From the NCBI GenBank assembly GCA_947311115.1, contig CAMZKE010000029.1, positions 10,385-74,384 on the forward strand: a stretch of 64,000 nucleotides of DNA, in the 5' to 3' direction. Of this stretch, positions 1,185 to 40,854 are shown in pieces; the stretch's first letter is position 1, and each line of letters opens with the position of its first letter. Under the pieces are notes generated by a model that did no database searches, was not told the DNA's origin, and was given only the letters and a program-made list of their open reading frames with translations. The DNA is from an uncultured Bacteroidales bacterium (lineage in GTDB: Bacteria; Bacteroidota; Bacteroidia; Bacteroidales; JAFGXI01). The translations under genes were made by a program, and so were the position numbers.

Positions 1185-3005
1185 TTATTCGTGACCAAGA
1201 AGTAACTTAGAAATACCTTTAACAGCAGCATAACCATCAGCAATAGCAGAAATAGCATCGGCTGTCTTGTTTACAGCATCACCACCGGCAAATACTTTAG
1301 GGTCTCCTGTTTGGTTAAATTCATTTACAACAATCATCATACCTCGCTTAATTTCAATTTTGTCTTTAAAGCTTTCCGGTAACCATGAGTAATCAGCTTC
1401 CTGACCAATAGCTCCAATTACTGTATCACATTCAAAAATTTCTTCAGAACCTTCAATTGCAACAGGTCTTGGACGACCTCCTTTGTCATCTGCTACCATT
1501 TCGGCACGTAAAAATTCAACACCGGCAACTTTACCATCTGCACCTTTAATAATTTTGGTAGGAATAGTTTGAGGATCAATTCTAACACCTTCTTCTTGAG
1601 CTCCAATAATTTCTTCCCAATCGGCAGGCATATCTTCTACTCTACGTCTGTAAAGAATAACTACTTCTGCACCCAAACGGGCTGATACTCTTGCTCCATC
1701 AATAGCAACATTACCGCCACCAAATACTGCAACTTTTTTACCAACATCGTATTTATCGCCACGGTTAATAATATCAAGGAAATCAACAGCAGGAATTGAA
1801 CCCTGAATTTCTTCATTTTCCATACCTAGAGTCCAAGCTTTTTGGAAACCAATACCAACAAAAATTGCGTCGAAAGCTGTGTGCATTTCTTCAAAAGTAA
1901 TATCTTTTCCAACAGTGGTATTGTAATTAATTTTAACACCAATGCTTTCCATATACTCAACTTGTTTATCAACACTTTCCATAGGGAATCGGTATTTTGG
2001 AATACCGTAAACTGTCATACCTCCGGCTTTTGCTTTAGCTTCAAAAATAGTAACATCAAATCCACGTAAAGCAAGGTAATAACCGGCTGTTAAGCCCGAA
2101 GGGCCAGCTCCAATAATACCAACTTTTTTTCCATTTGGTTCAGCAATAACTGGATTTAATATTTCTTTAATTTTTGCGGCAGTTGGTGCTGTTTCTGTAG
2201 CATATCGTTTTAACCAGCGTATTGATACTGCACCTTTGTCGTTAGGGTCGTTTTCAACTCCACGATGAGTAAGAGCACAAACAGTTTCGCATTGGCGAGT
2301 ACAAACCTTTCCACACATTTCAGGGAATGGGTTATTATCATAAATAATACGTAATGCATCTTCATCGTTTCCACTAGCAATAGCATTAATATATTCAGGA
2401 ATGTGCATTGTATCAGGACATACATTTGTACAAAGTCCACAAGAAATACAACGTTGAGCTTCTGCACGTGCTTCTTCTTCATTATAGCCAAGAACAACTT
2501 CTGCAAACGATTTTACACGTTCGCTACCTTCAAGTTCACGCATTGGAACTCTGTTGTACATTGATAATGAGAATTCTGTTTCTGAAGTAAACGATATGTC
2601 ATTTTTTCCTTCAGGATTATCAACTCCCGGTGTCCAAAGAAATGCATTTGCATCAGGAGTAACATAAATATAATCTTTTGTTAAGTTTAATGAACCGGTA
2701 GGGCATACCTCAACGCATAAAGCACACCAACAACAACGACCGTTATCAACACGAGGACGTAACCCACTATCACCACGCGAATGCTCTACACCCTCAATAT
2801 TTATCATATCTATAGCATCGTTTTGGCAAATAGTTGAACAGTTTCCACAACCAATACATACTTGTAAATCGTTATAGTGTAAACCACGATAACGGTCGGC
2901 AGTTTTCTTAGTTTCAAAAGGGTAGTTAATAGTATGAGGTTTTTTCCCCAACTGTTTAACAGCTCCTAATGGTTGTAACATTCCTTTTAAATCAAAAAAG
3001 CTCAT
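1185..3005 (-). CDS. NuoI/MbxN-type 2x[4Fe-4S] ferredoxin fused to GltD/SudA-like NAD(P)H-dependent FAD oxidoreductase
   Basis: 'CIGCGNCSTIC' and 'CCWCALCVEVCP' (NuoI-like). 'CISCGLCTNVCP' and 'CGKVCTRQCETVC' (GltD-type Fe-S). 'GIIGAGPSGLTAGYYL' (FAD) and 'VFGGGNVAIDGA' (NAD(P)H) Rossmann motifs. Last gene of the mrp/mbx-like operon. Confidence 0.85.
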   Translation of the reverse strand: MSFFDLKGMLQPLGAVKQLGKKPHTINYPFETKKTADRYRGLHYNDLQVCIGCGNCSTICQNDAIDMINIEGVEHSRGDSGLRPRVDNGRCCWCALCVEVCPTGSLNLTKDYIYVTPDANAFLWTPGVDNPEGKNDISFTSETEFSLSMYNRVPMRELEGSERVKSFAEVVLGYNEEEARAEAQRCISCGLCTNVCPDTMHIPEYINAIASGNDEDALRIIYDNNPFPEMCGKVCTRQCETVCALTHRGVENDPNDKGAVSIRWLKRYATETAPTAAKIKEILNPVIAEPNGKKVGIIGAGPSGLTAGYYLALRGFDVTIFEAKAKAGGMTVYGIPKYRFPMESVDKQVEYMESIGVKINYNTTVGKDITFEEMHTAFDAIFVGIGFQKAWTLGMENEEIQGSIPAVDFLDIINRGDKYDVGKKVAVFGGGNVAIDGARVSARLGAEVVILYRRRVEDMPADWEEIIGAQEEGVRIDPQTIPTKIIKGADGKVAGVEFLRAEMVADDKGGRPRPVAIEGSEEIFECDTVIGAIGQEADYSWLPESFKDKIEIKRGMMIVVNEFNQTGDPKVFAGGDAVNKTADAISAIADGYAAVKGISKLLLGHE

Positions 3006-3104
3006 CTTTTTTATTTTTTATTTTTTATTTATTAATTATTATTGAAAAAAATACGACATATATTATATCAATAATAAATATAAAATAATAATTAATAAAT
3101 TAAA

Positions 3105-4211
3105 TTATCTTTCCATTTCCGGAGGACAAACGCCCATCGAGTTCAAAATAAATGAAACATCGGCTATATTTTGTCCCGGTAATATTTTTTCTAATACTGT
3201 AATGCCGTTAGTGTAAGCAGCACCTTTTACGTGTACTCTACGAGGTTTGTTAGAACCGTCACTAACTACATAGAATCCAACTTCTCCACGAACCGACTCT
3301 GTTTTGGTCCAAGCCTCACCGGCAGGAACAGTCCATTTCATAGGGTTTGGTACTTTATTATAAAATTCGCCTTCAGGCATTTTTTCTAATGCTTGACGAA
3401 TAATATTAATCGATTGGCGTGCTTCTTCTTGACGAACTAATGCGCGTGCCCAAACATCGCCACCTTCTTGAGTAGGTACAATAAAATCTAATTTATCGTA
3501 AGCACAATATGGTTCGTCAATACGAACATCGTGCTTAATGCCTGTTCCTCTAAGTGGTGCTCCAACAACTCCCCATTCAATAGCTTTATCTTTTGGTACA
3601 ATACCAACGCCTTGAGCTCTTTTTTGGAAAATTGTATTATCAAACATTATTTTGTTATATTCGTCAAGACGTTTCTCAATGTAATCCATTGTTTTAAGAG
3701 CTTTGTCTTTCCAACCTTTTGGTAAGTCTCTACGAACTCCTCCCGGCCAAATATACATATGGTAAATTCTACCACCTGTTAGCTCTTCAAATAAATCAAG
3801 AATGTAGTTTCTGTCTCCAACTGACCATTGTCCAGTTAGGTACAAGCCTGCCGAACCTGATTGACCTGCGTACCATAGCATAAATGATTGTAAGCGAGCA
3901 AGTTCCATTACTATTGTGCGTATGTATTCTGCTCTTTCCGGAACTTCTCTGTTTTCAAGCTCTTCAACAGCTCTTGCATATGTAAGCTCCATTGGGTCAG
4001 GCTCAGGTACACAAAATCTACATAAAATTGTAAATGTTTGTAACCAATTACGTCGTTCAATTAATTTCTCGAAAGCACGGTGAAGGTATCCTACGTGAGT
4101 TTCTGCTCTCACAACAGTATCACCTGTAACTTTTAATTTAATCATCATATTCCCTGTAATACCAGGGTGTTGAGGACCTAAATACAGTGTGGTTTCTTTT
4201 TCTCGTACCAT
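3105..4211 (-). CDS. NuoD / group-4 [NiFe]-hydrogenase large-subunit-like protein (MbxL-like)
   Basis: 'GYLHRAFEKLIE' (HRGxEK block). 'LCRFC' at the N-terminal CxxC position. C-terminus 'GVCPPEMER'. Start abuts the stop of the upstream NuoC-like gene at 4211. Confidence 0.85.
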   Translation of the reverse strand: MVREKETTLYLGPQHPGITGNMMIKLKVTGDTVVRAETHVGYLHRAFEKLIERRNWLQTFTILCRFCVPEPDPMELTYARAVEELENREVPERAEYIRTIVMELARLQSFMLWYAGQSGSAGLYLTGQWSVGDRNYILDLFEELTGGRIYHMYIWPGGVRRDLPKGWKDKALKTMDYIEKRLDEYNKIMFDNTIFQKRAQGVGIVPKDKAIEWGVVGAPLRGTGIKHDVRIDEPYCAYDKLDFIVPTQEGGDVWARALVRQEEARQSINIIRQALEKMPEGEFYNKVPNPMKWTVPAGEAWTKTESVRGEVGFYVVSDGSNKPRRVHVKGAAYTNGITVLEKILPGQNIADVSFILNSMGVCPPEMER

Positions 4212-4774
4212 TACTCTCTTGAATATTTTTTAGCGAAATCAGGAATTACTTCTCCGCTTTGTTTTGTTAATTCTTCTCTTACATCTTTTGCATCTTCACG
4301 TCCGGGACGTTGGTAAAATGTTTTTTCAGCATAGGCGTGAGTATCAAAATCTCTACGCATAGGAGGCATTTCGTCCCAATCTTCTAATGCAAAATCTTGA
4401 CGGCCAATTAATCCGGGAAACTGAATACCGTACATTTCACGCATTTCGCGTTCGTATGTATTTGCTTGGTCCCATATGCTATCAATGTTTTCCATTTCTG
4501 CATTTTCTCTATCGATAAAAGTTTTAAGCATAATGGTAACTTTTTCAGTAGGAGACCATATAATATAATTTAGTTCAAATTTACCATCTTCTATACGGTC
4601 AACAACCGACATATGGTTTAAATGAATATATCCTTGTTGATTTTTACAGAATAATAAGATACTTGAAACAATATCTTTATTAGCCGTAATCATCACTCGT
4701 TTTTCTCTAGCAATATGCCCTTCAACATTGAAGGCTACTTTTATTGCTTCGAGAATTTTATTTTCTTTTTCCAT
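4211..4774 (-). CDS. NuoC / 30-kDa-subunit-like protein (MbxK-like)
   Basis: 'EREMREMYGIQFPG' block typical of NuoC/HycE-N. Sits between the NuoB-like and NuoD-like genes. Confidence 0.8.
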   Translation of the reverse strand: MEKENKILEAIKVAFNVEGHIAREKRVMITANKDIVSSILLFCKNQQGYIHLNHMSVVDRIEDGKFELNYIIWSPTEKVTIMLKTFIDRENAEMENIDSIWDQANTYEREMREMYGIQFPGLIGRQDFALEDWDEMPPMRRDFDTHAYAEKTFYQRPGREDAKDVREELTKQSGEVIPDFAKKYSRE

Positions 4775-4852
4775 ACTCTATAAATTCTAAACTTTGAATT
4801 CTAAATTTTAAATTAATTTATATAATTTTAAATTCGTAATTCATAATTTATT

Positions 4853-5401
4853 TTACCAGTTATAATCCGGCATACGCCAATTTTTAATTATCTTCTTTTG
4901 ATTGGCTCTGTACCACTCAAGATTTTCTTTATATTTTGCTGCATTATTTGCAGTTCCTTCAGCAATTTGTTTTTGTAGTTGAACAAAACCTGAAATTACA
5001 GCTTCAGGACGAGGCATACAGCCATTAATATATACATCAACCGGAATATATCTGTCTAATGCATTGATAGTGTTGTAACTATCGTAATACATACCTCCGT
5101 TAATAGTACACGAACCAAAACCAATTACATATTTGGGGTCTTGCATTTGCTCGTAAACTCTAATTACACGTTTTAAAGTTTTTGTAGCTAAATAACCTGT
5201 AATTAATAATACATCAGCTTGACGAGGAGTTGCGGCACCTCTAATACCAAAACGCTCTGCATCGTAACGAGATGTCATTGTAGCAGGAATTTCGATAGCA
5301 CCACAACCTGTGCCATAAGCCATAACAAAAAGTGAGTGTTTTCTACTCCAATTTTGTATGTATTCTACTATTGTTTGTTTATCTTTATTATTTGATGTCA
5401 T
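4853..5401 (-). CDS. NuoB / hydrogenase small-subunit-like protein (MbxJ-like)
   Basis: Blocks 'GCGAIE', 'GFGSCTINGG' and 'NGCMPRPE' match the NuoB/PSST layout. Only three Cys in the whole protein. Confidence 0.85.
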   Translation of the reverse strand: MTSNNKDKQTIVEYIQNWSRKHSLFVMAYGTGCGAIEIPATMTSRYDAERFGIRGAATPRQADVLLITGYLATKTLKRVIRVYEQMQDPKYVIGFGSCTINGGMYYDSYNTINALDRYIPVDVYINGCMPRPEAVISGFVQLQKQIAEGTANNAAKYKENLEWYRANQKKIIKNWRMPDYNW

Positions 5402-5413
5402 AGTTAATAAGAT

Positions 5414-6352
5414 TTAAAAAATAGCCCAAATTACAGCGATTACACCTAAGGCTGTAGGCCATCCCCAAAAATATCTGATTGCTTGTTCTGTTCTGTATCG
5501 AGGGCTTATCCAACCGTAAAATACAGGAACCATATAAAGCGAAAATGTTTTTAATAATAAAATTCCTAATCCCATGATAGTAGCTAAAATACCGGTTCCG
5601 AAACCGGCACCACCCATAAATAAATCAACATAAAGGGTTAATTTAATAAATGCGAAGATAGAGCCTCCACTCATCATTGTTCCAAGATATTTACCTCCAA
5701 ACTCAGAAACAGGACCTGATGCTAATTCAGCAGGAGCACCAACAATATCGAAAGGAGAGTATCGAAACATTCCTAAAGATGCAAATAAAGCTGCTAAAAA
5801 TGCAAATGGGTTTGCAAACATCATCCAAGTACCTGTTTGGGCTTGAATATCCATAATGTCTTGAATTGATGTAGTTTTATATTGAACCATTAAAGCAACT
5901 AACGCTAAAACGAAAGGGATTTCAAATCCAACCATTTGGCTGAGTCCACGAGTTACACCAATAGCCGAGTTTGGGTTACCTGTTTGTCCTGCACCAAGAG
6001 CCATACCTAACGAGCCAAAAACCATCATATAAAGAAGGAAAATTAAATCGCCGTGAAAAGTAAGGTTTGGAAACCATAAATTGCCATTTAAAATTGGAAT
6101 AAACATTAGCACTGTACCTGCAGAAATTATAATCCATACAGGAGCCATATGTCCCATAAATCCGTGAGCAATATTTGTTTTCTTACTTTGAAGTTTTAAT
6201 AAATCTAAAAAGTTCTGCCATATAACAGGACCTCGTCTGTTTTGAACTCTTGCGGTAAGTTTTCTAACAATACCTCCGTAAGTCATACCTACTGTAAAGG
6301 CAAGTATAACTGTAAGTAATGCTCCAATAATTTTTATACCTAAATCTTCCAT
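5414..6352 (-). CDS. NuoH / HycD-like membrane subunit (MbxM-like)
   Basis: Polytopic. N-terminal loop 'RKLTARVQNRRGP' resembles the NuoH 'RKxxAxxQxRxGP' block. Sits between the antiporter-like and NuoB-like genes. Confidence 0.75.
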   Translation of the reverse strand: MEDLGIKIIGALLTVILAFTVGMTYGGIVRKLTARVQNRRGPVIWQNFLDLLKLQSKKTNIAHGFMGHMAPVWIIISAGTVLMFIPILNGNLWFPNLTFHGDLIFLLYMMVFGSLGMALGAGQTGNPNSAIGVTRGLSQMVGFEIPFVLALVALMVQYKTTSIQDIMDIQAQTGTWMMFANPFAFLAALFASLGMFRYSPFDIVGAPAELASGPVSEFGGKYLGTMMSGGSIFAFIKLTLYVDLFMGGAGFGTGILATIMGLGILLLKTFSLYMVPVFYGWISPRYRTEQAIRYFWGWPTALGVIAVIWAIF

Positions 6353-6361
6353 ATTTTATTA

Positions 6362-8236
6362 TTATACAAATAAAGTATCTTTAAATAACAACATTAATAC
6401 AAGGAATATAACTACAAACAATGCATAAGTTTGTCCGTTTCCAGTGTATATTTTTCTGGTAAAGTTAAAAAGAGCTTCTAAGCCATTACCAAGTTCGTTC
6501 CAAATTTTATTCATACTACGCTTGTACATAGGTGCTGCAGCTCTAACAAACGGTTGGAAAAAATTTATTTGGAAAGTTAAGTTTTCGTTTTCGTAAGGAA
6601 TTTCACCTGATGTTGAAATGTCTTTTGTTCCAACATAACGTGTGCCTTTTAATCCTTTTAGTGTGATGAATGCAAATATTGATACAAATACAACACCTAT
6701 TGTAATTCCAAGATATGTAAGGTTCATTTCGTTACCCCACACATTGTTAAGTACCGACATGTTCCAAGTTACATCTTTAAAACCAATAAATTCCATTGCG
6801 GTTGCTATTGGGGAGAATATTAATCCCGGAAAAGCACCTGTAATAACTAATAATATGGCTAAAACTAACATTGGAATTATCATTGTAATAGGAGCTTCTT
6901 TTACCTGCTCTGTTTCTTTTTCTTCTTGTCCTAAAAATAATCCGAAAAGGAAACGGTAACTGTATAAGAATGCAGCTGTACTTGAGAAGAAAATTACTAT
7001 TACTAAAAAGTATGAATTGCTTTCTGTTATTAAGGCTTCGTAAAGCATCCATTTACCGACAAAACCACCTAATGGAGGAATACCTGCAAGTGCAATAATT
7101 GATATTAAAGCTGTAAGAAATGTGAAAGGCATTTTTCTGATTAAACCGGATATTTTAGTCATATCGGTAGTTCCTGCCTGACGTTCAACGGCTCCAACAA
7201 CCATAAATAAAGCTCCTTTAAATATACCGTGAACAACAGCTAAAAATAGAGCCGCCATAACACCAAGTTTTGTACCGGTTGCTAAACCTACTGTAATATA
7301 TCCAAGCTGAGCGATTGATGAGTATGCTAAAAGTTTTTTAGCATCGTCTTGAATAAGTGCGTAGAGTGTGGCAATTACAGCTGTAATACCACCTAACCAA
7401 CCAATTGTTTGTTGAAGATAAATAACGCTGAATCCACTAAAAAAGTTAGTTAAGCTACCGCTACGGTCAGCAGTAAACATATGACCAAGTACTAATCCCA
7501 TACCTAAAACTCCCATTTTACTCATTGCTCCGGAGAATATAACTGTAAAGGATGTTGGTGCATTATTATATGCTCCCGGTGCCCATACGTGAAGTGGCAT
7601 TGTTGCAGCTTTTACTCCAAATCCTATAAGTAGAAGAATAGGTATGTATATATTATCAATAAAATTGAATGCTCCTGCATTAATTGCATCAGAAATAAGG
7701 AAAGTATCGTATTGTCCTTTTATCATTACAATAGCAGTAAGCATTGAGTATGCTCCAATTGCACTAAATATCATATATTTAATACCAATTTTTTTAACAT
7801 TTTTACCTGAGTATATAATAATAAGGTAAGATGCCCAAGTCATTATTTCCCAAAAAATGAAGAATGAAATAAAATCGTTGGCGAAAATAATACCTGTCAT
7901 ACCTGCAATAACAAGCACAAAGTTGAAATAAAAACCACTTGTGCGTTCTTTGTTTTGCATATAGGATATTGAATATAACGAAGCTAAAGTACCTAAACCT
8001 AAAACTATTATTCCGAATAAATATCCGTAACTGTTAAGTCCCCACTGTAATTGAATTCCACCAAGCGAAAACTCAATAAAACTGCCCATTTCAATTTGTG
8101 TAAAAAATAGGGCAGAAGCTGCTGCTATTGATAAAAATGCAACAGTACCGCTAATAATTGATGATATTTTGCCAAGAACAAACGATAGTCCTGCACCTGC
8201 AAAAAGAATCAATAATATTAAAAAGAAACTATTCAT
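6362..8236 (-). CDS. MrpA/D-NuoL-type proton-conducting antiporter-like subunit (MbxH'-like)
   Basis: 'GVKAATMPLHVWAPGAY' and 'LLAYSSIAQLGY' blocks. More than 14 hydrophobic segments. Confidence 0.8.
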   Translation of the reverse strand: MNSFFLILLILFAGAGLSFVLGKISSIISGTVAFLSIAAASALFFTQIEMGSFIEFSLGGIQLQWGLNSYGYLFGIIVLGLGTLASLYSISYMQNKERTSGFYFNFVLVIAGMTGIIFANDFISFFIFWEIMTWASYLIIIYSGKNVKKIGIKYMIFSAIGAYSMLTAIVMIKGQYDTFLISDAINAGAFNFIDNIYIPILLLIGFGVKAATMPLHVWAPGAYNNAPTSFTVIFSGAMSKMGVLGMGLVLGHMFTADRSGSLTNFFSGFSVIYLQQTIGWLGGITAVIATLYALIQDDAKKLLAYSSIAQLGYITVGLATGTKLGVMAALFLAVVHGIFKGALFMVVGAVERQAGTTDMTKISGLIRKMPFTFLTALISIIALAGIPPLGGFVGKWMLYEALITESNSYFLVIVIFFSSTAAFLYSYRFLFGLFLGQEEKETEQVKEAPITMIIPMLVLAILLVITGAFPGLIFSPIATAMEFIGFKDVTWNMSVLNNVWGNEMNLTYLGITIGVVFVSIFAFITLKGLKGTRYVGTKDISTSGEIPYENENLTFQINFFQPFVRAAAPMYKRSMNKIWNELGNGLEALFNFTRKIYTGNGQTYALFVVIFLVLMLLFKDTLFV

Positions 8237-8242
8237 ATCTGT

Positions 8243-9733
8243 TTAGTTTATATTTTGTGTTAATACCGCTTGAATATATGATGCTTTATCTAATAACATA
8301 TCAGCAGCGTTGTTTAAAAAGTGAGTTATTATATCAGGATAAACTCCAACAACAATTATTGTAGCTCCTAATATTAACATAGAAACCATTGCATTAATTG
8401 ATGGTTTTTGTACTTTAATTTCTTCGTCTTCTTGTTTGCCGTAGTATAATGTGCTTACAACTCTGAAATAATAAATTATTTCTATTATACTAACTGCTAA
8501 TATTGCCATTATTAATAAAAGCATATTTTGGTCGGCAGCAGCAGTAAGTACATATAGTTTGCTCCAAAATCCTGAGAAAGGAGGTAGTCCAACTATTGCA
8601 AATGCACCTAAGCCAAATAGTAATGATACAATTGGAAGTTTTTTTCCTAATCCGGCTAAAGCCGATATTTTTTTGTTTAAAGAGTTATAGGTTAAATAAC
8701 TTCCACTCATAAATAACAAACTTTTGATAACTGCGTGGTTAAACATTAAGAATAATGCTCCAATAATTGCAGTTTTTGTGCCAATGCCAAAAGCAATAAG
8801 TACAAAACCCATTTGACCAATACTTGAATAAGCAAGCATTCGTTTAAGGTTTGTTTGTGCTACTGCAGCTGTTTCGGCAATTATCATTGTTATTAAACCA
8901 CCGTATATTAAGAAATCGTAAGCTCCGTGAATATCGAATAGAGTGAAAATAACTCTTATTAATGCGTAAACACCAGCTTTAACAACTATTCCTGCAAAGG
9001 CTGCTCCAATTGGTCCGGGAGATTGAGAGTAAGCATCAGGAGCCCATCCGTTTAACGGGAACATTTCTGCCTCAATACCAAAGCCTACTAAAAATAATAC
9101 TAAAATTGTAGCTCTTAATGGAGTTGGTATTAAATGTGCATTTTGAGCAATTTCTGCCATATTTAATGTGCCAAGCTGTGTGTAAAGAATCATTACGGCA
9201 AGCAATATCATTACTGATGCGAAGCTACCTATTAATAAATATTTAAATCCTGCTTCAGCTCCATCTCTTTCGCGGTAAAACGATGTAAGCGAATATGCTG
9301 TAATGGCTGTTATCTCCATAAATACAAATAGGTTGAAAATATCACCCGTAAGTACAATGCCAATTGCACCGGTAACCATCATCATTTGTAATATATGATA
9401 TTTTTGAGATTGAGATTGTTCAATTTTCTTAAAATTATAACTGTAAAGCCAAATTAAGAAGCCAACAACCGACATTAGACTTGCTAAAAATCCACTGAAA
9501 GGAGTAAACATAAGGTTAATTCCCCAAGGGGCAGACCAACCTGCAATTTTTTCAGATATTACACCTACTTCGCTAACTTGCATCATTAATACAATTGAAA
9601 CGAAAACAGAGTATAACAATACAATTCCCGGTACTATTCTGGCAAGTTCTTTATGAATGTACTTGCTTAATAATGGAATTGTAAAAGCCGCTAATAACGG
9701 CACCGCAATATAATGAACCGGACTTATTACCAT
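8243..9733 (-). CDS. MrpD/NuoN-type antiporter-like subunit (MbxH-like)
   Basis: 'GIEAEMFPLNGWAPDAY' and 'RMLAYSSIGQMGF' blocks. Overlaps the upstream gene by 7 nt. Confidence 0.85.
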   Translation of the reverse strand: MVISPVHYIAVPLLAAFTIPLLSKYIHKELARIVPGIVLLYSVFVSIVLMMQVSEVGVISEKIAGWSAPWGINLMFTPFSGFLASLMSVVGFLIWLYSYNFKKIEQSQSQKYHILQMMMVTGAIGIVLTGDIFNLFVFMEITAITAYSLTSFYRERDGAEAGFKYLLIGSFASVMILLAVMILYTQLGTLNMAEIAQNAHLIPTPLRATILVLFLVGFGIEAEMFPLNGWAPDAYSQSPGPIGAAFAGIVVKAGVYALIRVIFTLFDIHGAYDFLIYGGLITMIIAETAAVAQTNLKRMLAYSSIGQMGFVLIAFGIGTKTAIIGALFLMFNHAVIKSLLFMSGSYLTYNSLNKKISALAGLGKKLPIVSLLFGLGAFAIVGLPPFSGFWSKLYVLTAAADQNMLLLIMAILAVSIIEIIYYFRVVSTLYYGKQEDEEIKVQKPSINAMVSMLILGATIIVVGVYPDIITHFLNNAADMLLDKASYIQAVLTQNIN

Positions 9734-10107
9734 TTTAAAGATTTTATTTGATCAATTCTTGCTGTATTATGATGTTTATATAAACGTATCACTAATGAAA
9801 GGGCAACTGCTGTTACTGCAAAACCAATAACAATTGCTGTAAGTACCAATGCTTGTGGTACAGGGTCAACCATTTTATTAACTGCATCTTCGTTTCCCGG
9901 AGAAAAAATTGGGGCAGTTCCGCCTTTAATATATCCAATAGCCACAAATAATAAATGTACACCGGCATCAATTATAGATAAACCGATTACAATTTTTATT
10001 AGGTGTTTTTTTATAAGAACTGCATACAGACCTATTAATATAAGTGCAATTGCAGAACCATAAACACCTGTTGTTATTATACTATTATATTGTTCGAAAT
10101 TTTGCAT
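9727..10107 (-). CDS. MrpC/NuoK-like subunit (MbxG-like)
   Basis: Three TM segments. 'PVPQALVLTAIVIGFAVTA' block of MnhC/NuoK. Confidence 0.8.
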   Translation of the reverse strand: MQNFEQYNSIITTGVYGSAIALILIGLYAVLIKKHLIKIVIGLSIIDAGVHLLFVAIGYIKGGTAPIFSPGNEDAVNKMVDPVPQALVLTAIVIGFAVTAVALSLVIRLYKHHNTARIDQIKSLKW

Positions 10108-10826
10108 TATTTTTTTGGTTTAATGTTCAACAATATATCTAAAACTCCTGTTAATTCGGCTGCAACTTTAAATCCAACAGCTATATATATAATAGGAATT
10201 ACACCACCACTTATTAAATTATTAAGTTCTCCTGCAGGTAAAACATTTTCTAAGAAAGTTCCTCCTGTTAAAAGTCCCCATAAACCAATGCTTACAAATG
10301 TAATTCCTGCAAGACTTTCAACCCAATTAAGCATTGTGTGTCCGGCTTTAAAGTTTTTGTAAGATATTAGCATAAGTAGAAAACCTGTTGCTATAATTGC
10401 TCCTCCTTGGAAACCTCCACCTGGTGTTAAGTGTCCGTGAATAAAAACATAAATTCCTAATAGAGCAATTAAAGGAAATAATACTCTTGAGCCTGTTTGC
10501 ATAAGTGATGATGAAGGTTTGTTTATTCTTTCAATTTCTTCTTCATCTTCTTTTCTGCGGAAAAGTATGCTTCCTAAACCTGTTGTTGCAAGGAAAAGAA
10601 CTGTTACTTCGCCAAGTGTATCAAAACCTCTATAATTTACAACAATTGCAGTTACTGTGTTTGCAACAGATGTTTTTTCTACGGTGTTATTTAAGTAGTA
10701 CCCCGCAACGGTTTGTTCGTCTTGCGGATTTCCTATTCGGTTTTCTCCGAAAGGAATTAAGTTAAATGTATCGGTTAAAAAATAACCAACAATAACTAAT
10801 AATACCAATACAAGTACTTTCTTCAT
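10107..10826 (-). CDS. MnhB/MrpB-like subunit (MbxF-like)
   Basis: 'VTAIVVNYRGFDTLGE' signature of the MnhB domain. Polytopic. Confidence 0.8.
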   Translation of the reverse strand: MKKVLVLVLLVIVGYFLTDTFNLIPFGENRIGNPQDEQTVAGYYLNNTVEKTSVANTVTAIVVNYRGFDTLGEVTVLFLATTGLGSILFRRKEDEEEIERINKPSSSLMQTGSRVLFPLIALLGIYVFIHGHLTPGGGFQGGAIIATGFLLMLISYKNFKAGHTMLNWVESLAGITFVSIGLWGLLTGGTFLENVLPAGELNNLISGGVIPIIYIAVGFKVAAELTGVLDILLNIKPKK

Positions 10827-10828
10827 TT

Positions 10829-11107
10829 TTAGAACTTTTCAAGATTATTATCTACTGTTTCGTCTTCGTTTCGCGAGGTATTTCTAATAGTAATTACAAA
10901 AATTATTGTCGTTAATGCAATACCAATAGCAGCTTCGGTTAAAGCAACATCGGGAGCTTGCATTAAATAAAAGAATACCGAAAGAATTAAACTTACAACA
11001 CCTGTTGAAATAACAGCTGCAAGTAAATCTTTTTGAATTACTGCATATAGTGCCGATGCAACAAGCAAAACAGCTAAAATGCTAAATATTACAACGTATG
11101 TTATCAT
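10829..11107 (-). CDS. DUF4040 / MbhD-like small membrane subunit (MbxD-like)
   Basis: 'APDVALTEAAIGIALTT' block. 92 aa, three TM segments. Confidence 0.7.
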   Translation of the reverse strand: MITYVVIFSILAVLLVASALYAVIQKDLLAAVISTGVVSLILSVFFYLMQAPDVALTEAAIGIALTTIIFVITIRNTSRNEDETVDNNLEKF

Positions 11108-11457
11108 AGTTTAACCTCCTCTTTTACTTCAATGTCTTGAACTTTTTCGTAAGCATCAACTTTTTTCTTCATTATAGGTTTTAAGCCTGCTTTGTAGGCT
11201 GCACGTGCTAAAGCGTGCGAGCTTAAAGGGTTGGCAATGCCAATAAATATTACAATAATTATTGTTTTTACCATCCAAGCCGGTTCAATAAAACCTACAC
11301 CTAAAATTGCACTCATAGCACCAATTGTGGTAGCTTTTGTTCCTGCTTGTAGTCTGTTGTACAAGTCCGGCATACGGTATATACCTAGAGCACCAAGGAA
11401 TAAAAATATTCCTCCAATAACTAAAAGTCCGTATCCAATGTATCTTAAAATCTCCAT
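11104..11457 (-). CDS. MrpG/MnhG-like subunit (MbxC-like)
   Basis: 'YRMPDLYNRLQAGTKATTIG' signature. 4-nt overlap with the downstream gene. Confidence 0.85.
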   Translation of the reverse strand: MEILRYIGYGLLVIGGIFLFLGALGIYRMPDLYNRLQAGTKATTIGAMSAILGVGFIEPAWMVKTIIIVIFIGIANPLSSHALARAAYKAGLKPIMKKKVDAYEKVQDIEVKEEVKL

Positions 11458-11714
11458 TATAATGCTTTTTCTATAAATCTTGCGATTACAATTACACCAA
11501 TAAAACCAAGAACTGCATATATAAGAGCTACATCAATGTAGATGTATCTTTTAAACATAAGTCCTAATAACACCAATGCCGCAGTTGCAATAACTGACAT
11601 TGTATCTAGTGCCACAGCTCTATCGGCTGCGGTTGGTCCTTTAACAAATCGTAAAAAACCAAGTAATAACCCTAAGGCCATTAACGATAATACTATTATG
11701 AATACTGTCTCCAT
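11457..11714 (-). CDS. MrpF/MnhF-like subunit (MbxB-like)
   Basis: 'VKGPTAADRAVALDT' signature. 85 aa, three TM segments. Confidence 0.8.
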   Translation of the reverse strand: METVFIIVLSLMALGLLLGFLRFVKGPTAADRAVALDTMSVIATAALVLLGLMFKRYIYIDVALIYAVLGFIGVIVIARFIEKAL

Positions 11715-11724
11715 ATAATAGGGT

Positions 11725-12249
11725 TTATCCGTAAATTTTTAATAAAACTTTTTCGAAAGGTTCAGCTATTTCTTTAAATGCTTCTTCCGGATTTTCTGTT
11801 GCTACATCAATCCAATGTATATACATTGTATCATCAATTACATCAATTGTAAGTGTACCAGGTGTAAGTGTGATACTGTTTGCTAAAATCATTTTAGCAA
11901 AATCGTTTGTTAGTTTAGTTTTTATTTCAACAATACCCGGATTAATAGGTAGTGCAGGGTTTATAACTCTAACAGCTACATCAAGATTTGCTTTAATAAG
12001 GGCTATTATAAAAACAAAAAAGTATTGAACCAAAAAAATAATTTTATGAGGCATCAATACTTGTAGTCCGCAGCACGAGAAGTATTTGTTGGTTAATAAA
12101 CCGAGAATTAAACTTACAAATGCTCCTGTTAAAACTTCGGCTAATTGAATATCGGCAAAAGAGCCGGGCCAAGTAAAAGCATTCCAAATAATAAACACCA
12201 TTATAAAGGTGTATAAAAATTTGCTTATAGATGATTTTCCGTCTTGCAT
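11725..12249 (-). CDS. MrpE/MnhE-like subunit (MbxA-like), first gene of operon
   Basis: 'LANSITLTPGTLTIDV' signature of MnhE. A TAnnTTTG-like box (TATTTTTG) lies about 20 nt upstream on the minus strand. Confidence 0.8.
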   Translation of the reverse strand: MQDGKSSISKFLYTFIMVFIIWNAFTWPGSFADIQLAEVLTGAFVSLILGLLTNKYFSCCGLQVLMPHKIIFLVQYFFVFIIALIKANLDVAVRVINPALPINPGIVEIKTKLTNDFAKMILANSITLTPGTLTIDVIDDTMYIHWIDVATENPEEAFKEIAEPFEKVLLKIYG

Positions 12250-12414
12250 TTTAATCTTCTTAAAATTTATACAAAAATATAATTATATACATTTTTAGTT
12301 AGGTATATATTTGTGTTTTTTAACAGATTTTTTAATTTGTTCTCTGTCTAAATAGGGGAGAGACGCAAGTGTTGGATTGTTTAAATATATTATGATTTGT
12401 TAGTAATTTAAATT

Positions 12415-36525: not shown

Positions 36526-39500
36526 ATGATAAATAATATAATAAATTTTTCAATAAAAAATAAGGCGTTGGTATGGCTTATGACAATTGGTTTAATAATA
36601 GGAGGAATATATTCTATGACCAAAGTTCCGCTCGATGCAATGCCTGATATTACTAATAATCAAGTATTGGTAATAACTACAGCACCTAATCTCGGAACCG
36701 AAGATATAGAGCGTTTTGTAACCTATCAGGTTGAATTGGCTGTAGCAAATTTACCCGATGTTGTAGAAATACGTAGTGTTTCGCGTTTTGGTTTATCTGT
36801 TGTAACCATAGTGTTTGAAGAAAGTGCCGGCAAATATCTGCCAAGACAGTTGGTAAGTGAGGCATTAAGCGATATTAAAGAAAAAATTCCCGAAGGTTTT
36901 GGTGAACCTTTTATGGCACCAATAAGCACAGGCTTGGGCGAAATATATCAATATACGCTTGAAGTAGCACCGGGTTTTGAAGACAAGTATGATGATATGC
37001 AACTGCGAACTATGCAAGATTGGATAGTAAAACGCCAAATGGCAATGTTGCCAGGAGTGGTCGAAGTAAACTCGTTTGGTGGAAGGCAAAAGCAATACGA
37101 AGTTGCAATAAACCCCGATAAGCTTAAAAGTATGGGCGTTAGTATGTCTGATGTTTATAAAGCTCTTGAAAAAAACAATCAGAATATAGGAGGCGCATAT
37201 ATCGAAAAAAATCATCAAGCCAATTTTATTCGTGGCGAGGGCTTAATGCGTTCCAAAAAAGATTTAGAAAACACTTTGGTAAAAAATATTGATGGCCAAG
37301 CCATTTTTATTCGCGATGTTGCCACTGTTAAGTTCGGAAACTTTGTGCGTTATGGGGCGTTTTTAGAAAACGGGAAAGGCGAAGCCGTTGGCGGTATTGT
37401 AATGATGCTAAAAGGGGCAAACTCAAACGACGTGATAAAAGCCGTAAAAGAACGAGTGGCACTTATTCAAAAATCTTTACCCGAAGGTGTAAGTATAAAA
37501 CCATTTTTAGACCGTAGCAAACTTATAAAACATACAACATCAACAGTAGCCGAGAATTTAGCAATGGGGGCACTTATCGTAATATTTATTTTGGTGCTTT
37601 TTTTAGGAAACTTACGAGGAGGGTTAATTGTTGCATCAACAATTCCTTTGGCATTGCTTTTTGCTTTTATTATGATGCACATTTTTGGAGTTTGGGCTAA
37701 CTTAATGAGTTTAGGAGCGTTAGATTTTGGTATTTTGGTTGACGGAGCAGTAATTATTGTAGAAAGTATGATTTTTTATTTGCATCGAAAAAATATTATA
37801 GGCACTAAATTATCACAAGAAAAACGCGATAACATTGCATATAAATCAGCAAGCAAAATGATGAATTCTGCATTTTTCGGACAATTAATTATTCTAATTG
37901 TTTTTATTCCTATTTTAGCTCTCGAAGGTGTTGAAGGTAAAATGTTTATACCAATGGCTTTAACCTTTGGTTTTGCTGTTGTTGGAGTTATGCTTCTTTC
38001 ATTAACTTATATTCCAATGTTAGCAGCAACATTTTTAAAACCACCAAAAACCACCAAAAAATCTTTTGGAGATAAAATTATCAATAAACTCGAAAATTTC
38101 TACAATCCAATTATCGATTGGGCATTACGCAAATCGAGTATAGTTATATCAGTATCCTTAATTCTTTTGCTTGTGGGTGGTTTTCTGTTTTCGAGAATGG
38201 GAGCAGAATTTATTCCAAAATTAGATGAAGGCGATTTTGCATTTCAAACTTTTTTTAAGCCCGGCACGTCGCTTAGCGAGGTAACCCAAACTACAAATAA
38301 AATTCATAAATTAATTATGGATAAATTCCCCGACGAAATTGAAAGTGTGCAGGGTAGAATTGGAGTTGCCGATATTCCTATGGACCCTATGCCCCTAGAT
38401 ATTGCCGATAATTTTGTAATATTAAAACCAAAAAAAGATTGGACAAAAGTAAAATCTAAAGCCGAATTAATTGAAAAAATAGAAGAAGAATTATCTGTTT
38501 TTACAGGAATTAATTACGAATTTACTCAACCCATCGAGATGCGTTTTAACGAACTGCTTACAGGGGTTAGAGAAGATATTGCCATTAAATTATATGGCGA
38601 CGATTTAAATATTATTTCGGAAAAAGCACAAGAAATAGCAAGTTTAGTTTCCGGAATTCGTGGTGTAGCAGGCGTAAAAGCCGAAGCCACAAAAGGTTTG
38701 CCTCAGATTACCGTAAAATATAATAGAAATATGATGGCACGTTACGGATTAAATATTTCTGATGTAAATAATATAATAGAAACGGCTTTTAGTGGTGGAG
38801 TAGCAGGTAAGATATACGAAGGCGAACGAATGTTCGATTTGGTTGTGCGTTTAGACAAAGCACATAGAACAAGCATCGACGATATCAGAAATTTATTTGT
38901 GAACTTACCAAACGGGCAACAAATTCCTTTGCAAGAGGTTGCTAATATTGATTATAAACCCGGACCTATGCAAATTAGTAGAGATAATACAAATAGAAGA
39001 ACTTATGTTGGAATTAATGTTGAAGATAGAGATATCAAATCATTAGTTAACGAAATTCAAGATGTTTTAGATGCCAAACTAAAATTGCCAACCGGTTATT
39101 ATATCCGATATGGTGGAGCATTCGAGAATTTAGAACGTGCAAGCAAAAAATTAACTTTAGTTGTACCTCTGGCTCTGGCTTTAATATTTATGTTGGTGTT
39201 TTTTGCCATAAAATCGTTTAAGCAAACATTAATGATATACATTGCCATACCTTTTGCTGCTGTGGGTGGTATTTTCTCGCTTTACTTACGTGATATGCCT
39301 TTCAGCATTTCTGCCGGCGTTGGTTTTATTGTGCTTTTTGGTGTAGCTGTACTTAATGGATTGGTGCTAATATCAGGATTTAATGAGCTAAAAGCCGAAG
39401 GTAAATTTAATATTATTGATATCGTTAAAAAAGGCTCTATTCGTAGAATTAGACCCATTTTATTAACAGCATCTACCGATATTTTAGGATTTCTACCAAT

Positions 39501-40854
39501 GGCAATTTCAACATCGGCAGGAGCCGAAGTGCAACGTCCTTTAGCAACAGTTGTTATTGGTGGCATGATTACATCTACCATATTAACGCTTATTGTTTTA
39601 CCAATTTTATATAAATGGATAGAAACTAAAAAAATGAAAACACCTAAATTAAATTTATCTGCGGCAAGCGTAGTTTTGCTAATTGCTTTTTTAGGATTTT
39701 CGAGCAATACAAATGCTCAAACTACAACTTATAATTTGCAGCAAGTTTTAGATACTGCAAAAGCAAATTATCCGGCTATAAAAGCGGCACAATTTAATGT
39801 GGAAAAGCAAAAAGCATTAAAATCTACAGCTTGGGATTTTGGCTCTACTAATATTTTTACAGGTAGAGAGGAGCAAGGTAACGGGCAAGTTGGTATTCAA
39901 AATGTAATTGGAATTGGGCAATCTGACATCGATATTTTTAGTATCCCTGCAAAAGGAAATTTGGCTAAAGCCAGAACAGAACAAGCGGTTCAACAACAAA
40001 TTTTAACAGAGTTAAAGCTAAAAAAAGATGTAAAAACAGCTTGGTATAAAGCCGTTTATGCAAAAAAGAATATGCAACTTTATTTGGTTTTAGATAGCTT
40101 ATACACCGATTTTTTACAAGCAACAGAACTTAGATATAAAACAGGAGCTAGTTCAAAAATTGAGTTTTTAACTGCATCGAGTAAGTTTAATGAGCTAAAA
40201 ATAAATATGCAACAAGCCGAAAGTAAATATTATTCTGCTTTGCAGAATCTAAATAAGTATTTATTATGTAAAACTGCTTTCGATATCGACATTAAAAATA
40301 GCAAGCAAAATATATTTATTAATACTGCTGACAGTCTGGATAATAGTCCTTTGCTTAGTTATTACGCAATGCAAACCCAACTTGCAAAAGCCCAATGGAA
40401 AAGCGAAAAAGCTAATCTATTACCAAAATTTAATTTTGAATATAAAAATCAATCTATTGATGGAGTAAGCGGCTTTAACGCTTGGCAAGTAGGTGTTTCT
40501 GTTCCTTTGGTATTTTTTTCTCAAAATGGAAAGAACAAAGCAGGCAGAATGGATTATCAGATTGCTAATGCCGAATTTGAGCAAAATAAATTACAAATAA
40601 ATTCTAATTATTTGCAACTGATAAACAGATACAATGTTCTAAAAAAAACTATGGAATATTATAACGATATTGCAATTCCTTTAGCCGATGAGCAGATTAA
40701 TGCATCTAATATTGCATTTAAAGCCGGAGGTATAGATTATATACAATTTATTCAGAGTTTGGAAAGTGCTATCGAGATAAAGCAAGTTTATCTTAAACAA
40801 GAAGCAGAATATTATATTTTGCAAGCAGAATTAAATTATTTAATAGGAAAATAA
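36526..40854 (+). CDS. CzcA-family heavy-metal RND pump fused in frame to a TolC/CzcC-type outer-membrane factor
   Basis: Residues 1-1036 are CzcA-like ('DFGILVDGAVIIVE', 12 TM segments, ends 'LPILYKWIETKK'). Residue 1037 onward reads 'MKTPKLNLSAASVVLLIAFLGFSSNTNAQ' (signal-peptide-like) plus a 400-aa TolC-family repeat. No stop codon at the junction (ATG 39634-39636 is in frame). Confidence 0.85.
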   Translation: MINNIINFSIKNKALVWLMTIGLIIGGIYSMTKVPLDAMPDITNNQVLVITTAPNLGTEDIERFVTYQVELAVANLPDVVEIRSVSRFGLSVVTIVFEESAGKYLPRQLVSEALSDIKEKIPEGFGEPFMAPISTGLGEIYQYTLEVAPGFEDKYDDMQLRTMQDWIVKRQMAMLPGVVEVNSFGGRQKQYEVAINPDKLKSMGVSMSDVYKALEKNNQNIGGAYIEKNHQANFIRGEGLMRSKKDLENTLVKNIDGQAIFIRDVATVKFGNFVRYGAFLENGKGEAVGGIVMMLKGANSNDVIKAVKERVALIQKSLPEGVSIKPFLDRSKLIKHTTSTVAENLAMGALIVIFILVLFLGNLRGGLIVASTIPLALLFAFIMMHIFGVWANLMSLGALDFGILVDGAVIIVESMIFYLHRKNIIGTKLSQEKRDNIAYKSASKMMNSAFFGQLIILIVFIPILALEGVEGKMFIPMALTFGFAVVGVMLLSLTYIPMLAATFLKPPKTTKKSFGDKIINKLENFYNPIIDWALRKSSIVISVSLILLLVGGFLFSRMGAEFIPKLDEGDFAFQTFFKPGTSLSEVTQTTNKIHKLIMDKFPDEIESVQGRIGVADIPMDPMPLDIADNFVILKPKKDWTKVKSKAELIEKIEEELSVFTGINYEFTQPIEMRFNELLTGVREDIAIKLYGDDLNIISEKAQEIASLVSGIRGVAGVKAEATKGLPQITVKYNRNMMARYGLNISDVNNIIETAFSGGVAGKIYEGERMFDLVVRLDKAHRTSIDDIRNLFVNLPNGQQIPLQEVANIDYKPGPMQISRDNTNRRTYVGINVEDRDIKSLVNEIQDVLDAKLKLPTGYYIRYGGAFENLERASKKLTLVVPLALALIFMLVFFAIKSFKQTLMIYIAIPFAAVGGIFSLYLRDMPFSISAGVGFIVLFGVAVLNGLVLISGFNELKAEGKFNIIDIVKKGSIRRIRPILLTASTDILGFLPMAISTSAGAEVQRPLATVVIGGMITSTILTLIVLPILYKWIETKKMKTPKLNLSAASVVLLIAFLGFSSNTNAQTTTYNLQQVLDTAKANYPAIKAAQFNVEKQKALKSTAWDFGSTNIFTGREEQGNGQVGIQNVIGIGQSDIDIFSIPAKGNLAKARTEQAVQQQILTELKLKKDVKTAWYKAVYAKKNMQLYLVLDSLYTDFLQATELRYKTGASSKIEFLTASSKFNELKINMQQAESKYYSALQNLNKYLLCKTAFDIDIKNSKQNIFINTADSLDNSPLLSYYAMQTQLAKAQWKSEKANLLPKFNFEYKNQSIDGVSGFNAWQVGVSVPLVFFSQNGKNKAGRMDYQIANAEFEQNKLQINSNYLQLINRYNVLKKTMEYYNDIAIPLADEQINASNIAFKAGGIDYIQFIQSLESAIEIKQVYLKQEAEYYILQAELNYLIGK

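Follow-up and report, generated by a model that had tools for sequence, protein, structure and literature searches.

A predicted NAD(P)H dehydrogenase module fused to the MbsN/NuoI-like subunit of an Mrp-Mbx membrane complex in an uncultured Bacteroidales bacterium

Introduction

The 64,000 nucleotides of DNA analysed here come from an uncultured Bacteroidales bacterium (GenBank assembly GCA_947311115.1, contig CAMZKE010000029.1, positions 10,385 to 74,384), and this whole stretch, to which all coordinates below refer, is called the window. Near its start, at 1185-3005 on the minus strand, lies a gene whose 606-residue product combines an MbsN/NuoI-like domain with two [4Fe-4S] motifs, a conserved linker and an NfnB/GltD-like flavoprotein, as judged from Pfam, NCBIfam and full-length homologues. 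It closes an operon of 13 genes that are read in one direction, from 12249 to 1185, and resemble those for the membrane-bound sulfane reductase (MBS, formerly Mbx, 6U8Y) of Pyrococcus furiosus. A first-pass annotation, made from the sequence by a model, had proposed that this fusion would tie pyridine nucleotide oxidation or reduction directly to the membrane complex, and it had pointed tentatively to similar MbxN-GltD fusions in some thermophilic bacteria.

This pointer proved correct. A gltD-related flavoprotein replaces NuoI in mbx-like operons of Thermotoga and proteobacteria (Degli Esposti, 2015; PMC4758237), and the operon of Thermosipho melanesiensis carries the same fusion. UniRef labels several members of the family 'Membrane bound protein complex subunit mbxN', and the NCBIfam model NF010590 (PRK13984) matches residues 7-602 of the window protein over model positions 9-606 of 611 (E-value 3.5e-186). 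The fusion is a member of a catalogued and widespread family already mentioned in print, so that its novelty is low and was over-rated in the first-pass annotation. No biochemical study of a fused member was found in the literature searched. The family spans many lineages in eight or more phyla, some of them abundant groups of sediments and symbioses, and its catalytic subunits bear the signatures of the archaeal sulfane reductase, yet published metabolic models draw ferredoxin as the donor or list the direction as unknown. Its donor, acceptor and direction, once known, would reshape the modelling of sulfur reduction, sulfur oxidation and NAD(P)H balance in the organisms that carry it.

Domain Architecture of the Fusion Protein

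The open reading frame (ORF) extends from ATG to stop on the minus strand, and the plus-strand translation of 1185-3005 is riddled with stops. Both the ORF and every motif quoted for it in the first-pass annotation were recovered in the minus-strand translation, these being CIGCGNCSTIC (residues 50-60), CCWCALCVEVCP (91-102), CISCGLCTNVCP (186-197), CGKVCTRQCETVC (231-243), GIIGAGPSGLTAGYYL (296-311), VFGGGNVAIDGA (427-438) and VFAGGD (571-576). The domain annotation that it had suggested as a check gives, in the expected order, Fer4_21/Fer4_7 (residues 48-104), Fer4_20 (163-274) and Pyr_redox_2 (294-591).

The first part of the protein, residues 1-125 (2631-3005, minus strand), begins with the lead 'KPHTINYPFE..RYRG' and is recognized as MbsN/NuoI-like by its best match in the PDB and by the NuoI models of NCBIfam. 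When residues 1-145 were compared with all PDB sequences, the best match was subunit N of P. furiosus MBS (6u8y_N, 2.2e-23, aligned over residues 9-117), followed by polyferredoxins (about 1e-15), the NuoI subunits of NDH-1 and complex I (1e-14 to 1e-10) and MbhN (7e-9). The NCBIfam NuoI models start at residue 8 or 16 and take in the part of the lead ahead of the clusters, 'HTINYPFE...RYRG'; NF004543 matches at 5.8e-29 and TIGR01971 at 8.4e-25 over model positions 6-114 of 121, the latter with 86.7 bits, which is below its cut-off of 113 bits. Two CxxCxxCxxxCP motifs follow (C50/53/56/60 and C91/94/97/101-P102), with about 30 residues inserted between them, and their eight cysteines are invariant in both homologue alignments (58 and 15 sequences). 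In MbsN the cluster ligands are C61/64/67/106 and C71/96/99/102 (PMC8165549), and by analogy the cysteines of the window protein would be shared between two clusters in the same pattern. In its sequence, the N-terminal part is therefore specific to the NuoI/MbsN type and goes beyond a generic ferredoxin extension of the kind that might precede any GltD-family protein, which bears out the first-pass assignment of a NuoI/MbhN/MbxN-type domain with two [4Fe-4S] clusters. Nor is there a separate NuoI-like gene in the visible 64 kb: all 13 operon genes are accounted for, the fusion provides the only NuoI-like subunit in the operon and the window, no second NuoI-like or GltD-like gene was found in the window, and tblastn with residues 1-135 returns only the fusion gene.

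In the second cluster motif the first ligand has an additional cysteine as its neighbour, Cys92 in 'RCCWC' (2730-2732). All 58 Bacteroidota-type and proteobacterial homologues have it, Thermosipho and some others have serine at this position, and MbsN lacks it. The motif 'CCWC' was considered as a signature of the family and was dropped because of the serine in Thermosipho and these other members.

The linker, residues 118-162 (2520-2654, minus strand), is partly conserved, with P126 and G127 invariant and F122 nearly so in the alignments. An AlphaFold2 model of the fusion protein was built from the 58-sequence alignment, and in the linker region it is unreliable, with a predicted local distance difference test (pLDDT) score below 50.

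The C-terminal flavoprotein begins with a Fer4_20 domain at residues 163-274 (2184-2519, minus strand; PF14691, 1.1e-26), which was aligned to NfnB of Thermotoga maritima (4ylf_B). Two sets of cysteines in it, C186/189/192/196 and C231/235/239/243, are invariant in the same two alignments and, by analogy with NfnB, GltD and dihydropyrimidine dehydrogenase (DPD), would bind two [4Fe-4S] clusters. The Rossmann module for flavin adenine dinucleotide (FAD) and NAD(P)H occupies residues 294-591 (1233-2126, minus strand; PF07992, 8.9e-26) and contains the motifs GAGPSG (299-304), GGGNVAxD (429-436), 'LYRRR' (450-454) and GGD (574-576); PF14691 and PF07992 both exceed their Pfam cut-offs. Against the PDB, residues 152-604 match T. 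maritima NfnB (4ylf_B) at 6.5e-84, the large subunit of P. furiosus NfnI (NfnI-L, 5jca_L) at 1.8e-82 and GltD at 6.6e-60. The AlphaFold2 model of this module is confident (pLDDT above 90), and in a Foldseek comparison it superimposes on NfnI-L with a template modelling (TM) score of 0.89 and a root-mean-square deviation of 2.3 A and on GltD with a TM score of 0.85. All 16 cluster cysteines of the protein and the glycine motifs for FAD and NAD(P)H are invariant in the 58 homologues, whose identity goes down to 39%. The assignment of these two parts to a GltD-type Fe-S domain and to FAD and NAD(P)H folds, already made in the first pass, is supported in both sequence (NfnB, 6.5e-84) and fold (TM 0.89). 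Among the PDB sequence and fold matches there is no solved structure with both halves of the protein.

The 'LYRRR' segment of the window protein (1644-1658) aligns with the YRR of the NADPH-dependent NfnB. When this site was compared within the fused family (with sequences P0245 and P0121 and with L080:10001-11770), two versions were observed. The window protein, 79 of 80 homologous loci that were fetched, Spirochaetaceae and Candidatus Hydrothermae have 'YRRR...DMPAD', while Thermosipho, WOR-3 and Rhodobacterales have an acidic 'S/T-x-L-E' strand end followed by an insertion of 6-8 residues. The two versions look like a preference for NADPH and for NADH, respectively, and the split could reflect either a deep divergence or a replacement of the flavoprotein half.

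Catalytic Subunits and Membrane Arm

All genes of the operon are on the minus strand, and two of them encode the NuoD-like and NuoB-like subunits. The MbsL/NuoD-like subunit (368 residues, 3105-4211) has as its best match MbsL (6u8y_L) over its full length at 9.3e-102, ahead of Nqo4 (1.9e-72) and MbhL (3e-42). It lacks the CxxC pairs of [NiFe] enzymes and retains the two vestigial cysteines of MbsL ('RFCVPEPD' and 'GVCPPEMER'). It also has no equivalents of His38 and Tyr87 of Nqo4 (the corresponding segments are 'GPQHPGITGN' and 'RFCV'), which are the quinone-binding residues of that protein; the residue criteria for MbsL are those of the MBS study (PMC7684303). The MbsJ/NuoB-like subunit (182 residues, 4853-5401) is likewise closest to MbsJ (6u8y_J, 1.1e-63 vs 1.2e-41 for NdhK). 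Where MbsJ has 'FCTGCGGIE' the window protein has 'YGTGCGAIE', with glycine at the position of MbsJ C25 and of the first cysteine of the tandem CC in complex I. At the sequence level, C33, C98 and C128 are the only cysteines available for its proximal [4Fe-4S] cluster. In the MBS structure three cysteines hold the proximal cluster, C25 being too distant, and sulfane reduction has been placed on the iron that lacks a cysteine ligand (PMC7684303). The NuoB-like motif is kept in 64 of 68 loci, and the NuoD-like motifs are also conserved across loci.

Four loci from Gammaproteobacteria metagenome-assembled genomes (MAGs; L069, L071, L072 and L073) depart from this pattern. Their NuoB-like subunit has a complex-I-like tandem cysteine ('FGTGCCSIE') and their NuoD-like subunit has neither vestigial MbsL cysteine ('CRIAVPEPA', 'SLHTYPPEIER'), while the fusion retains 'YRRR'. 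The catalytic site of these proteins may not be the same as in the window clade.

The remaining subunits complete a membrane oxidoreductase of the Mrp-Mbx kind. An MbsK/NuoC-like subunit (187 residues, 4211-4774; PF00329, 1.3e-22; colinear in the homologous loci) lies between the two catalytic genes, and upstream of them are an MbsM/NuoH-like membrane anchor (312 residues, 5414-6352; PF00146, 1.5e-51) and two antiporter-type subunits, one MbsH'-like (624 residues, 6362-8236, MrpA/NuoL-like; PF00361, 3.2e-56, and NF006419, 6.9e-140) and one MbsH-like (496 residues, 8243-9733, MrpD-like; PF00361, 2.6e-65). The distal end of the operon (9727-12249) is an Mrp-type membrane module, assigned by Pfam and found in the same order in the 80 loci and in Thermosipho. 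In the direction of transcription it comprises MnhE (11725-12249, PF01899), MrpF (11457-11714, PF04066), MnhG (11104-11457, PF03334), MbhD (10829-11107, PF13244), MbhE/MnhB (10107-10826, PF20501 with PF04039) and a NuoK/MnhC-like subunit (9727-10107, PF00420).

Distribution of the Fusion

The first-pass annotation had called for a taxonomic survey, and this places the fusion in many lineages. A word-indexed search returned more than 120 clusters that match the window protein over its full length at 69-94% identity, mostly MAGs of Bacteroidales and other Bacteroidota together with Candidatus Sulfidibacterium hydrothermale, with Bacteroidales MAGs as the nearest relatives. Scanning a single genome of each species yielded the 80 fetched loci, each with a full-length match, and these come from at least six phyla and include Bacteroidota; Ignavibacteriales, Melioribacter and bins named 'Chlorobiota'; Calditrichota, including Caldithrix abyssi; and Gammaproteobacteria, Myxococcota, 'Deltaproteobacteria' and Celeribacter neptunius. 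A search seeded with the Celeribacter protein added another 120 clusters, among them isolates of Rhodobacterales, Varunaivibrio sulfuroxidans, Magnetospira, Magnetococcales, Candidatus Thiodiazotropha and Candidatus Kentrum, so that more than 240 clusters are listed in all. Of representatives at 50% identity, about 13 match end to end, including Thermosipho melanesiensis, Spirochaetaceae, Candidatus Hydrothermae and WOR-3, and below them are only GltD/NfnB-like proteins in other contexts.

In tblastn searches with the 13 window proteins the gene order was identical wherever the DNA sufficed, with the fusion always last, and the fusion directly follows the NuoD-like gene in 75 of the 80 fetched loci (the 75 that have upstream DNA) as well as in Thermosipho. 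The operon of T. melanesiensis is, in addition, preceded by a divergent Rex-like gene (L081:475-1104; Put_DNA-bind_N and CoA_binding) and followed by a rubrerythrin-like gene (L081:11853-12356). Neither gene has a homologue close to the operon, either in the window or among the 80 other loci, and a Rex neighbour would fit an NADH-responsive control of the thermophile version.

Relationship to Known Systems

The nearest system as a whole is the MBX operon of the Thermotogota (T. maritima and T. melanesiensis), which has the same 13-gene order with the fusion last and a three-part fusion protein of about 600 residues. The Thermosipho protein is 45% identical to the window protein over its full length. 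It differs in having 'SLE' and an insertion where the window protein has 'LYRRR', and the window, whose host is a mesophile-like Bacteroidota with 31% G+C, lacks both the upstream Rex-like and the downstream rubrerythrin-like gene. P. furiosus MBS is the closest complex of known structure: MbsL, MbsJ and MbsN are the best solved relatives of the NuoD-, NuoB- and NuoI-like sequences of the window, and the two complexes share a set of 13 subunits, a complete Mrp module, two antiporter-like subunits and NuoH-, NuoB-, NuoC-, NuoD- and NuoI-like subunits, in addition to the vestigial cysteine pair of subunit L, the missing quinone His/Tyr and a proximal cluster with three cysteines. Unlike the free-standing, ferredoxin-fed MbsN of 208 residues, however, the N subunit of the window is extended by a NAD(P)H flavoprotein of 450 residues; glycine replaces MbsJ C25; and the host is bacterial and not hyperthermophilic.

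The flavoprotein half has a different set of relatives. NfnB and NfnI-L (4YLF_B and 5JCA_L) are 37-38% identical to it over 450 residues with TM scores of 0.88-0.89, and share two [4Fe-4S] motifs, the FAD site and an NADPH site with YRR, although Nfn is a soluble heterodimer with NfnA, whereas the module of the window is fused to a subunit of a membrane complex and there is no NfnA gene in the operon. GltD, the small subunit of NADPH-dependent glutamate synthase (6S6S), has the same fold and cofactors (6.6e-60, TM 0.85) and acts as a plain NAD(P)H-to-Fe-S input module for a partner protein, the role proposed here for the module of the window, but it is only about 30% identical, its partner GltB is not a respiratory complex and it has no NuoI-like N-terminal domain. 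Proteins of the AegA/YgfT type also carry Fer4 domains ahead of a GltD-like module, and model NF009408 aligns with residues 48-602. This alignment, however, begins only at the first cysteine motif, proteins of this type lack both the NuoI/MbsN lead (residues 8-47) and the operon context, and the score is 287 bits compared with 620 bits for NF010590.

In complex I the same lead and two-cluster domain occur, and the concept of a pyridine nucleotide dehydrogenase that feeds a NuoI-NuoB chain is common to both systems. The input of the window complex, in contrast, has FAD and the GltD fold in place of the flavin mononucleotide (FMN) of NuoF, no NuoE, NuoF or NuoG is encoded in the operon, the acceptor site is not of the quinone type and the membrane arm is of the Mrp/MBS type.

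Proposed Function and Alternatives

The predicted product of the gene is the MbsN/MbxN subunit, with a fused NAD(P)H dehydrogenase module, of an Mrp-Mbx membrane oxidoreductase of the MBS type that has 13 subunits, and a direct link from pyridine nucleotide to this complex, as the first pass had proposed, is a sound inference. The activity that we favour, with moderate confidence, is NAD(P)H-linked (here probably NADPH-linked) reduction of sulfane sulfur or polysulfide, coupled to ion translocation and possibly reversible. The fusion subunit would sit at the tip of the peripheral arm with its NfnB/GltD-type input module covalently attached. A hydride would pass from NAD(P)H to FAD, the donor in the window clade probably being NADPH because of the 'YRRR' motif, and single electrons would then cross the pair of [4Fe-4S] clusters in the Fer4_20 domain, followed by the distal and the medial cluster in the MbsN-like domain, before reaching the proximal MbsJ-like cluster with its three cysteine ligands. 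The free iron of that cluster would cleave the sulfane S-S bonds of polysulfide or of sulfur derived from elemental sulfur (S0), as proposed for P. furiosus MBS, and the redox reaction would drive movement of H+ or Na+ by way of the NuoH-like anchor, the two antiporter-like subunits and the Mrp module.

The standard potential of NAD(P)H is about -320 mV and that of polysulfide/HS- about -260 mV. The gap between the two is small, roughly 60-110 mV, and as a consequence a low ratio of ions to electrons and a readily reversible enzyme are to be expected. The simplest role for an AT-rich Bacteroidota heterotroph is the disposal of NAD(P)H onto sulfur, such that a low-G+C Bacteroidota fermenter would dump NAD(P)H in this way with a small energetic gain, while the reverse direction is plausible in the sulfur-oxidizing proteobacterial carriers. 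Isolate names (SulCav, the Zod and ZodW MAGs, Candidatus Sulfidibacterium hydrothermale and Thiodiazotropha) suggest a sulfidic origin for many of the carriers, which speaks for the favoured activity, as does, indirectly, the 4.4-fold rise of T. maritima mbxA on S0 (PMC9431562). A more speculative extension, which we consider possible but rather doubtful, is that the fused module represents a third kind of dedicated input head in the complex I superfamily, beside NuoEFG and FpoF, with an NADPH-specific 'YRRR' form and an NADH-specific form with 'xLE' and the insertion. In that case mesophilic Bacteroidota, Ignavibacteriota and Calditrichota of sulfidic habitats would run an ion-translocating NADPH:polysulfide oxidoreductase, which would connect the NADPH pool reversibly and near equilibrium with zero-valent sulfur and with the membrane potential.

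Several points weigh against polysulfide reduction by NAD(P)H. The transfer of electrons from NAD(P)H to polysulfide gives little free energy for two pump subunits and an antiporter module, and sulfur respiration is not known in many of the carriers, which are sulfur oxidizers or Rhodobacterales with a facultative or aerobic metabolism. In the published model for T. maritima the donor is ferredoxin (PMC9431562). The match to NF010590, at 620 bits, is under the 946-bit equivalog cut-off of that model, so the window protein is, on its score, a homologue of the same architecture outside the narrow NF010590 equivalog set. The AlphaFold2 model has a pLDDT below 50 for residues 1-142 and gives no usable geometry between the GltD-type and MbsN-type clusters, and we infer both the donor and the acceptor of the fused family from sequence.

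The difficulty with free energy would be eased if the complex were an alternative complex I, that is, an ion-pumping NAD(P)H:menaquinone oxidoreductase whose fused module stands in for NuoEFG as a single polypeptide. From established redox potentials, the approximately 250 mV available to menaquinone fits two pump subunits better, and the family is present in respiring Rhodobacterales and other proteobacteria. MBS has a hydrophobic substrate chamber that equals the one in complex I in width (PMC7684303), and the four gammaproteobacterial loci have the tandem CC in their NuoB-like subunit. The acceptor site of the window complex nevertheless argues the other way: its NuoD-like subunit has no equivalents of Nqo4 H38 and Y87 and is closer to MbsL (9.3e-102) than to Nqo4 (1.9e-72), its NuoB-like subunit has a single cysteine at the CC of complex I, and its membrane arm is of the Mrp/MBS and not the Nuo type. 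Reduction of menaquinone by the window complex is therefore considered unlikely.

Slightly less likely again is the older view of Mbx as an Rnf-like ferredoxin:NAD(P)+ oxidoreductase, in which ferredoxin donates the electrons and the GltD-like module is the exit where NAD(P)+ is reduced. Such a function has been stated for the mbx-like operons of Thermotoga and proteobacteria (PMC4758237), ion pumping could be sustained by a driving force of about 130-160 mV, and NfnB-type modules, as in 4YLF and 5JCA, have a distal cluster that faces ferredoxin. A path within the four clusters of the fusion, however, skips the junction of NuoB, NuoD and NuoH, which is the coupling site in every characterized relative, and leaves the conserved MbsJ- and MbsL-like catalytic subunits without a role. 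In P. furiosus the idea of a ferredoxin:NADP+ reaction has been superseded by sulfane reduction (PMC7684303).

It is also conceivable, though improbable for the window organism, that the same enzyme works in reverse in vivo, with the ion gradient pushing electrons from sulfide or polysulfide to NAD(P)+ to make reductant. With so nearly isoenergetic a couple the direction would be set by the gradient and the pool ratios, and the family is common in sulfur-oxidizing autotrophs and symbionts (Thiodiazotropha, Kentrum and Varunaivibrio sulfuroxidans). In Endoriftia, the symbiont of Riftia, Mrp-Mbx is co-expressed with the reductive tricarboxylic acid cycle and appears in a list of complexes whose function or direction is unknown (PMC11636981). 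The window organism, on the other hand, resembles an AT-rich Bacteroidota heterotroph (30.8% G+C, with Bacteroidales MAGs as relatives), its ORFs in the window, read by eye, give no sign of autotrophy or sulfur oxidation, and T. maritima, in which mbxA is up 4.4-fold on S0, induces mbx with S0 as the acceptor (PMC9431562).

Flavin-based electron bifurcation is a very improbable fourth reading, in which the NfnB-type FAD would split the electrons of NADPH between the membrane chain and a second acceptor such as ferredoxin. The nearest solved relatives of the C-terminal half are all bifurcating enzymes (NfnI, Xfn, NfnABC and StnABC) and rank ahead of GltD, but GltD and DPD share the fold without bifurcating. 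On standard potentials, the reduction of polysulfide and ferredoxin together by NADPH would be uphill. Moreover, the operon has no gene for an NfnA-like [2Fe-2S]/FAD protein or for HydBC-like proteins, and none was noticed elsewhere in the window, where the ORFs were read by eye without a Pfam or profile scan. Finally, an artefact, either a chimeric assembly or a pair of genes joined by a frameshift, has a practically negligible probability: apart from the absence of the exact protein sequence of the window from the databases looked up, no support for it was found, and it is ruled out by the full-length, colinear homologues in the more than 240 listed clusters and the 80 loci, including the complete genomes of Celeribacter, Magnetospira and Thermosipho, by the invariant residues in the linker itself and, for a chimera, because the same fusion has the same place in the operon in 80 genomes and in Thermosipho.

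Transcription Unit and Neighboring Genes

The 13 genes appear to be transcribed together. A sequence resembling the Bacteroidetes-type -7 box TAnnTTTG, which we take to be a Bacteroidetes promoter element, lies at 12272-12279 on the minus strand (TATTTTTG), about 23 nucleotides 5' of the first ATG of the operon. It is a match to the consensus only and is a candidate promoter for the whole operon. At the other end, a hairpin that resembles an intrinsic terminator, with a 12-bp stem and a T run, is found at 1131-1158 on the minus strand, 27 nucleotides past the stop codon of the fusion gene (-20.3 kcal/mol for the 90-nucleotide region), and the next gene, at 200-1069 on the plus strand, is convergent and encodes a thioredoxin-like product. 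Together the predicted -7 box and terminator hairpin bracket one putative transcription unit of 11 kb.

Within this unit the longest gap is the spacer between the NuoD-like gene and the fusion gene (3006-3104, minus strand), which has the 99 nucleotides and the AT-rich composition originally noted, its G+C content being 6%, and its neighbour is, as first annotated, NuoD-like (Complex1_49kDa, 3.5e-78). The first pass had suggested that an internal promoter might lie here, and this is not supported, in that pattern searches of the spacer gave neither a terminator nor a Bacteroidetes TAnnTTTG box, its coding strand showed no sigma-70-like site, and the length of the gap is not conserved. An A-rich run ahead of the ATG of the fusion gene is ordinary in a genome this AT-rich. 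In the homologous loci the gap varies from near zero (about 16-20 nucleotides in many, and abutting genes at L073) to about 680 nucleotides. Five loci have a small gene inserted in it (L014:770-1171, L019:3574-3840, L036:9481-9912, L046:9596-9868 and L056:227-586), whose product, as judged by eye, is of the '23S rRNA intervening sequence protein' type with a four-helix bundle, and the gap would thus be a soft spot for insertions, which may account for the long AT-rich gap in the window. The second-longest gap of the operon, 78 nucleotides (4775-4852), separates the NuoB-like and NuoC-like genes, and apart from the spacer all remaining junctions are 12 nucleotides or less or are overlapping.

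The remaining ORFs of the window, which has a G+C content of 30.8%, were read by eye, and no sulfur-related neighbours were spotted among them. One of these ORFs, at 36526-40854 on the plus strand, encodes a protein of 1442 residues in which a CzcA/CusA-like pump of the resistance-nodulation-division (RND) type is seemingly fused at its C terminus to a region resembling an outer-membrane factor, since past about residue 1040 there is a stretch that resembles a signal peptide followed by a TolC-like sequence. A second RND pump nearby (45801-49634) has its own outer-membrane and periplasmic adaptor genes, also as judged by eye.

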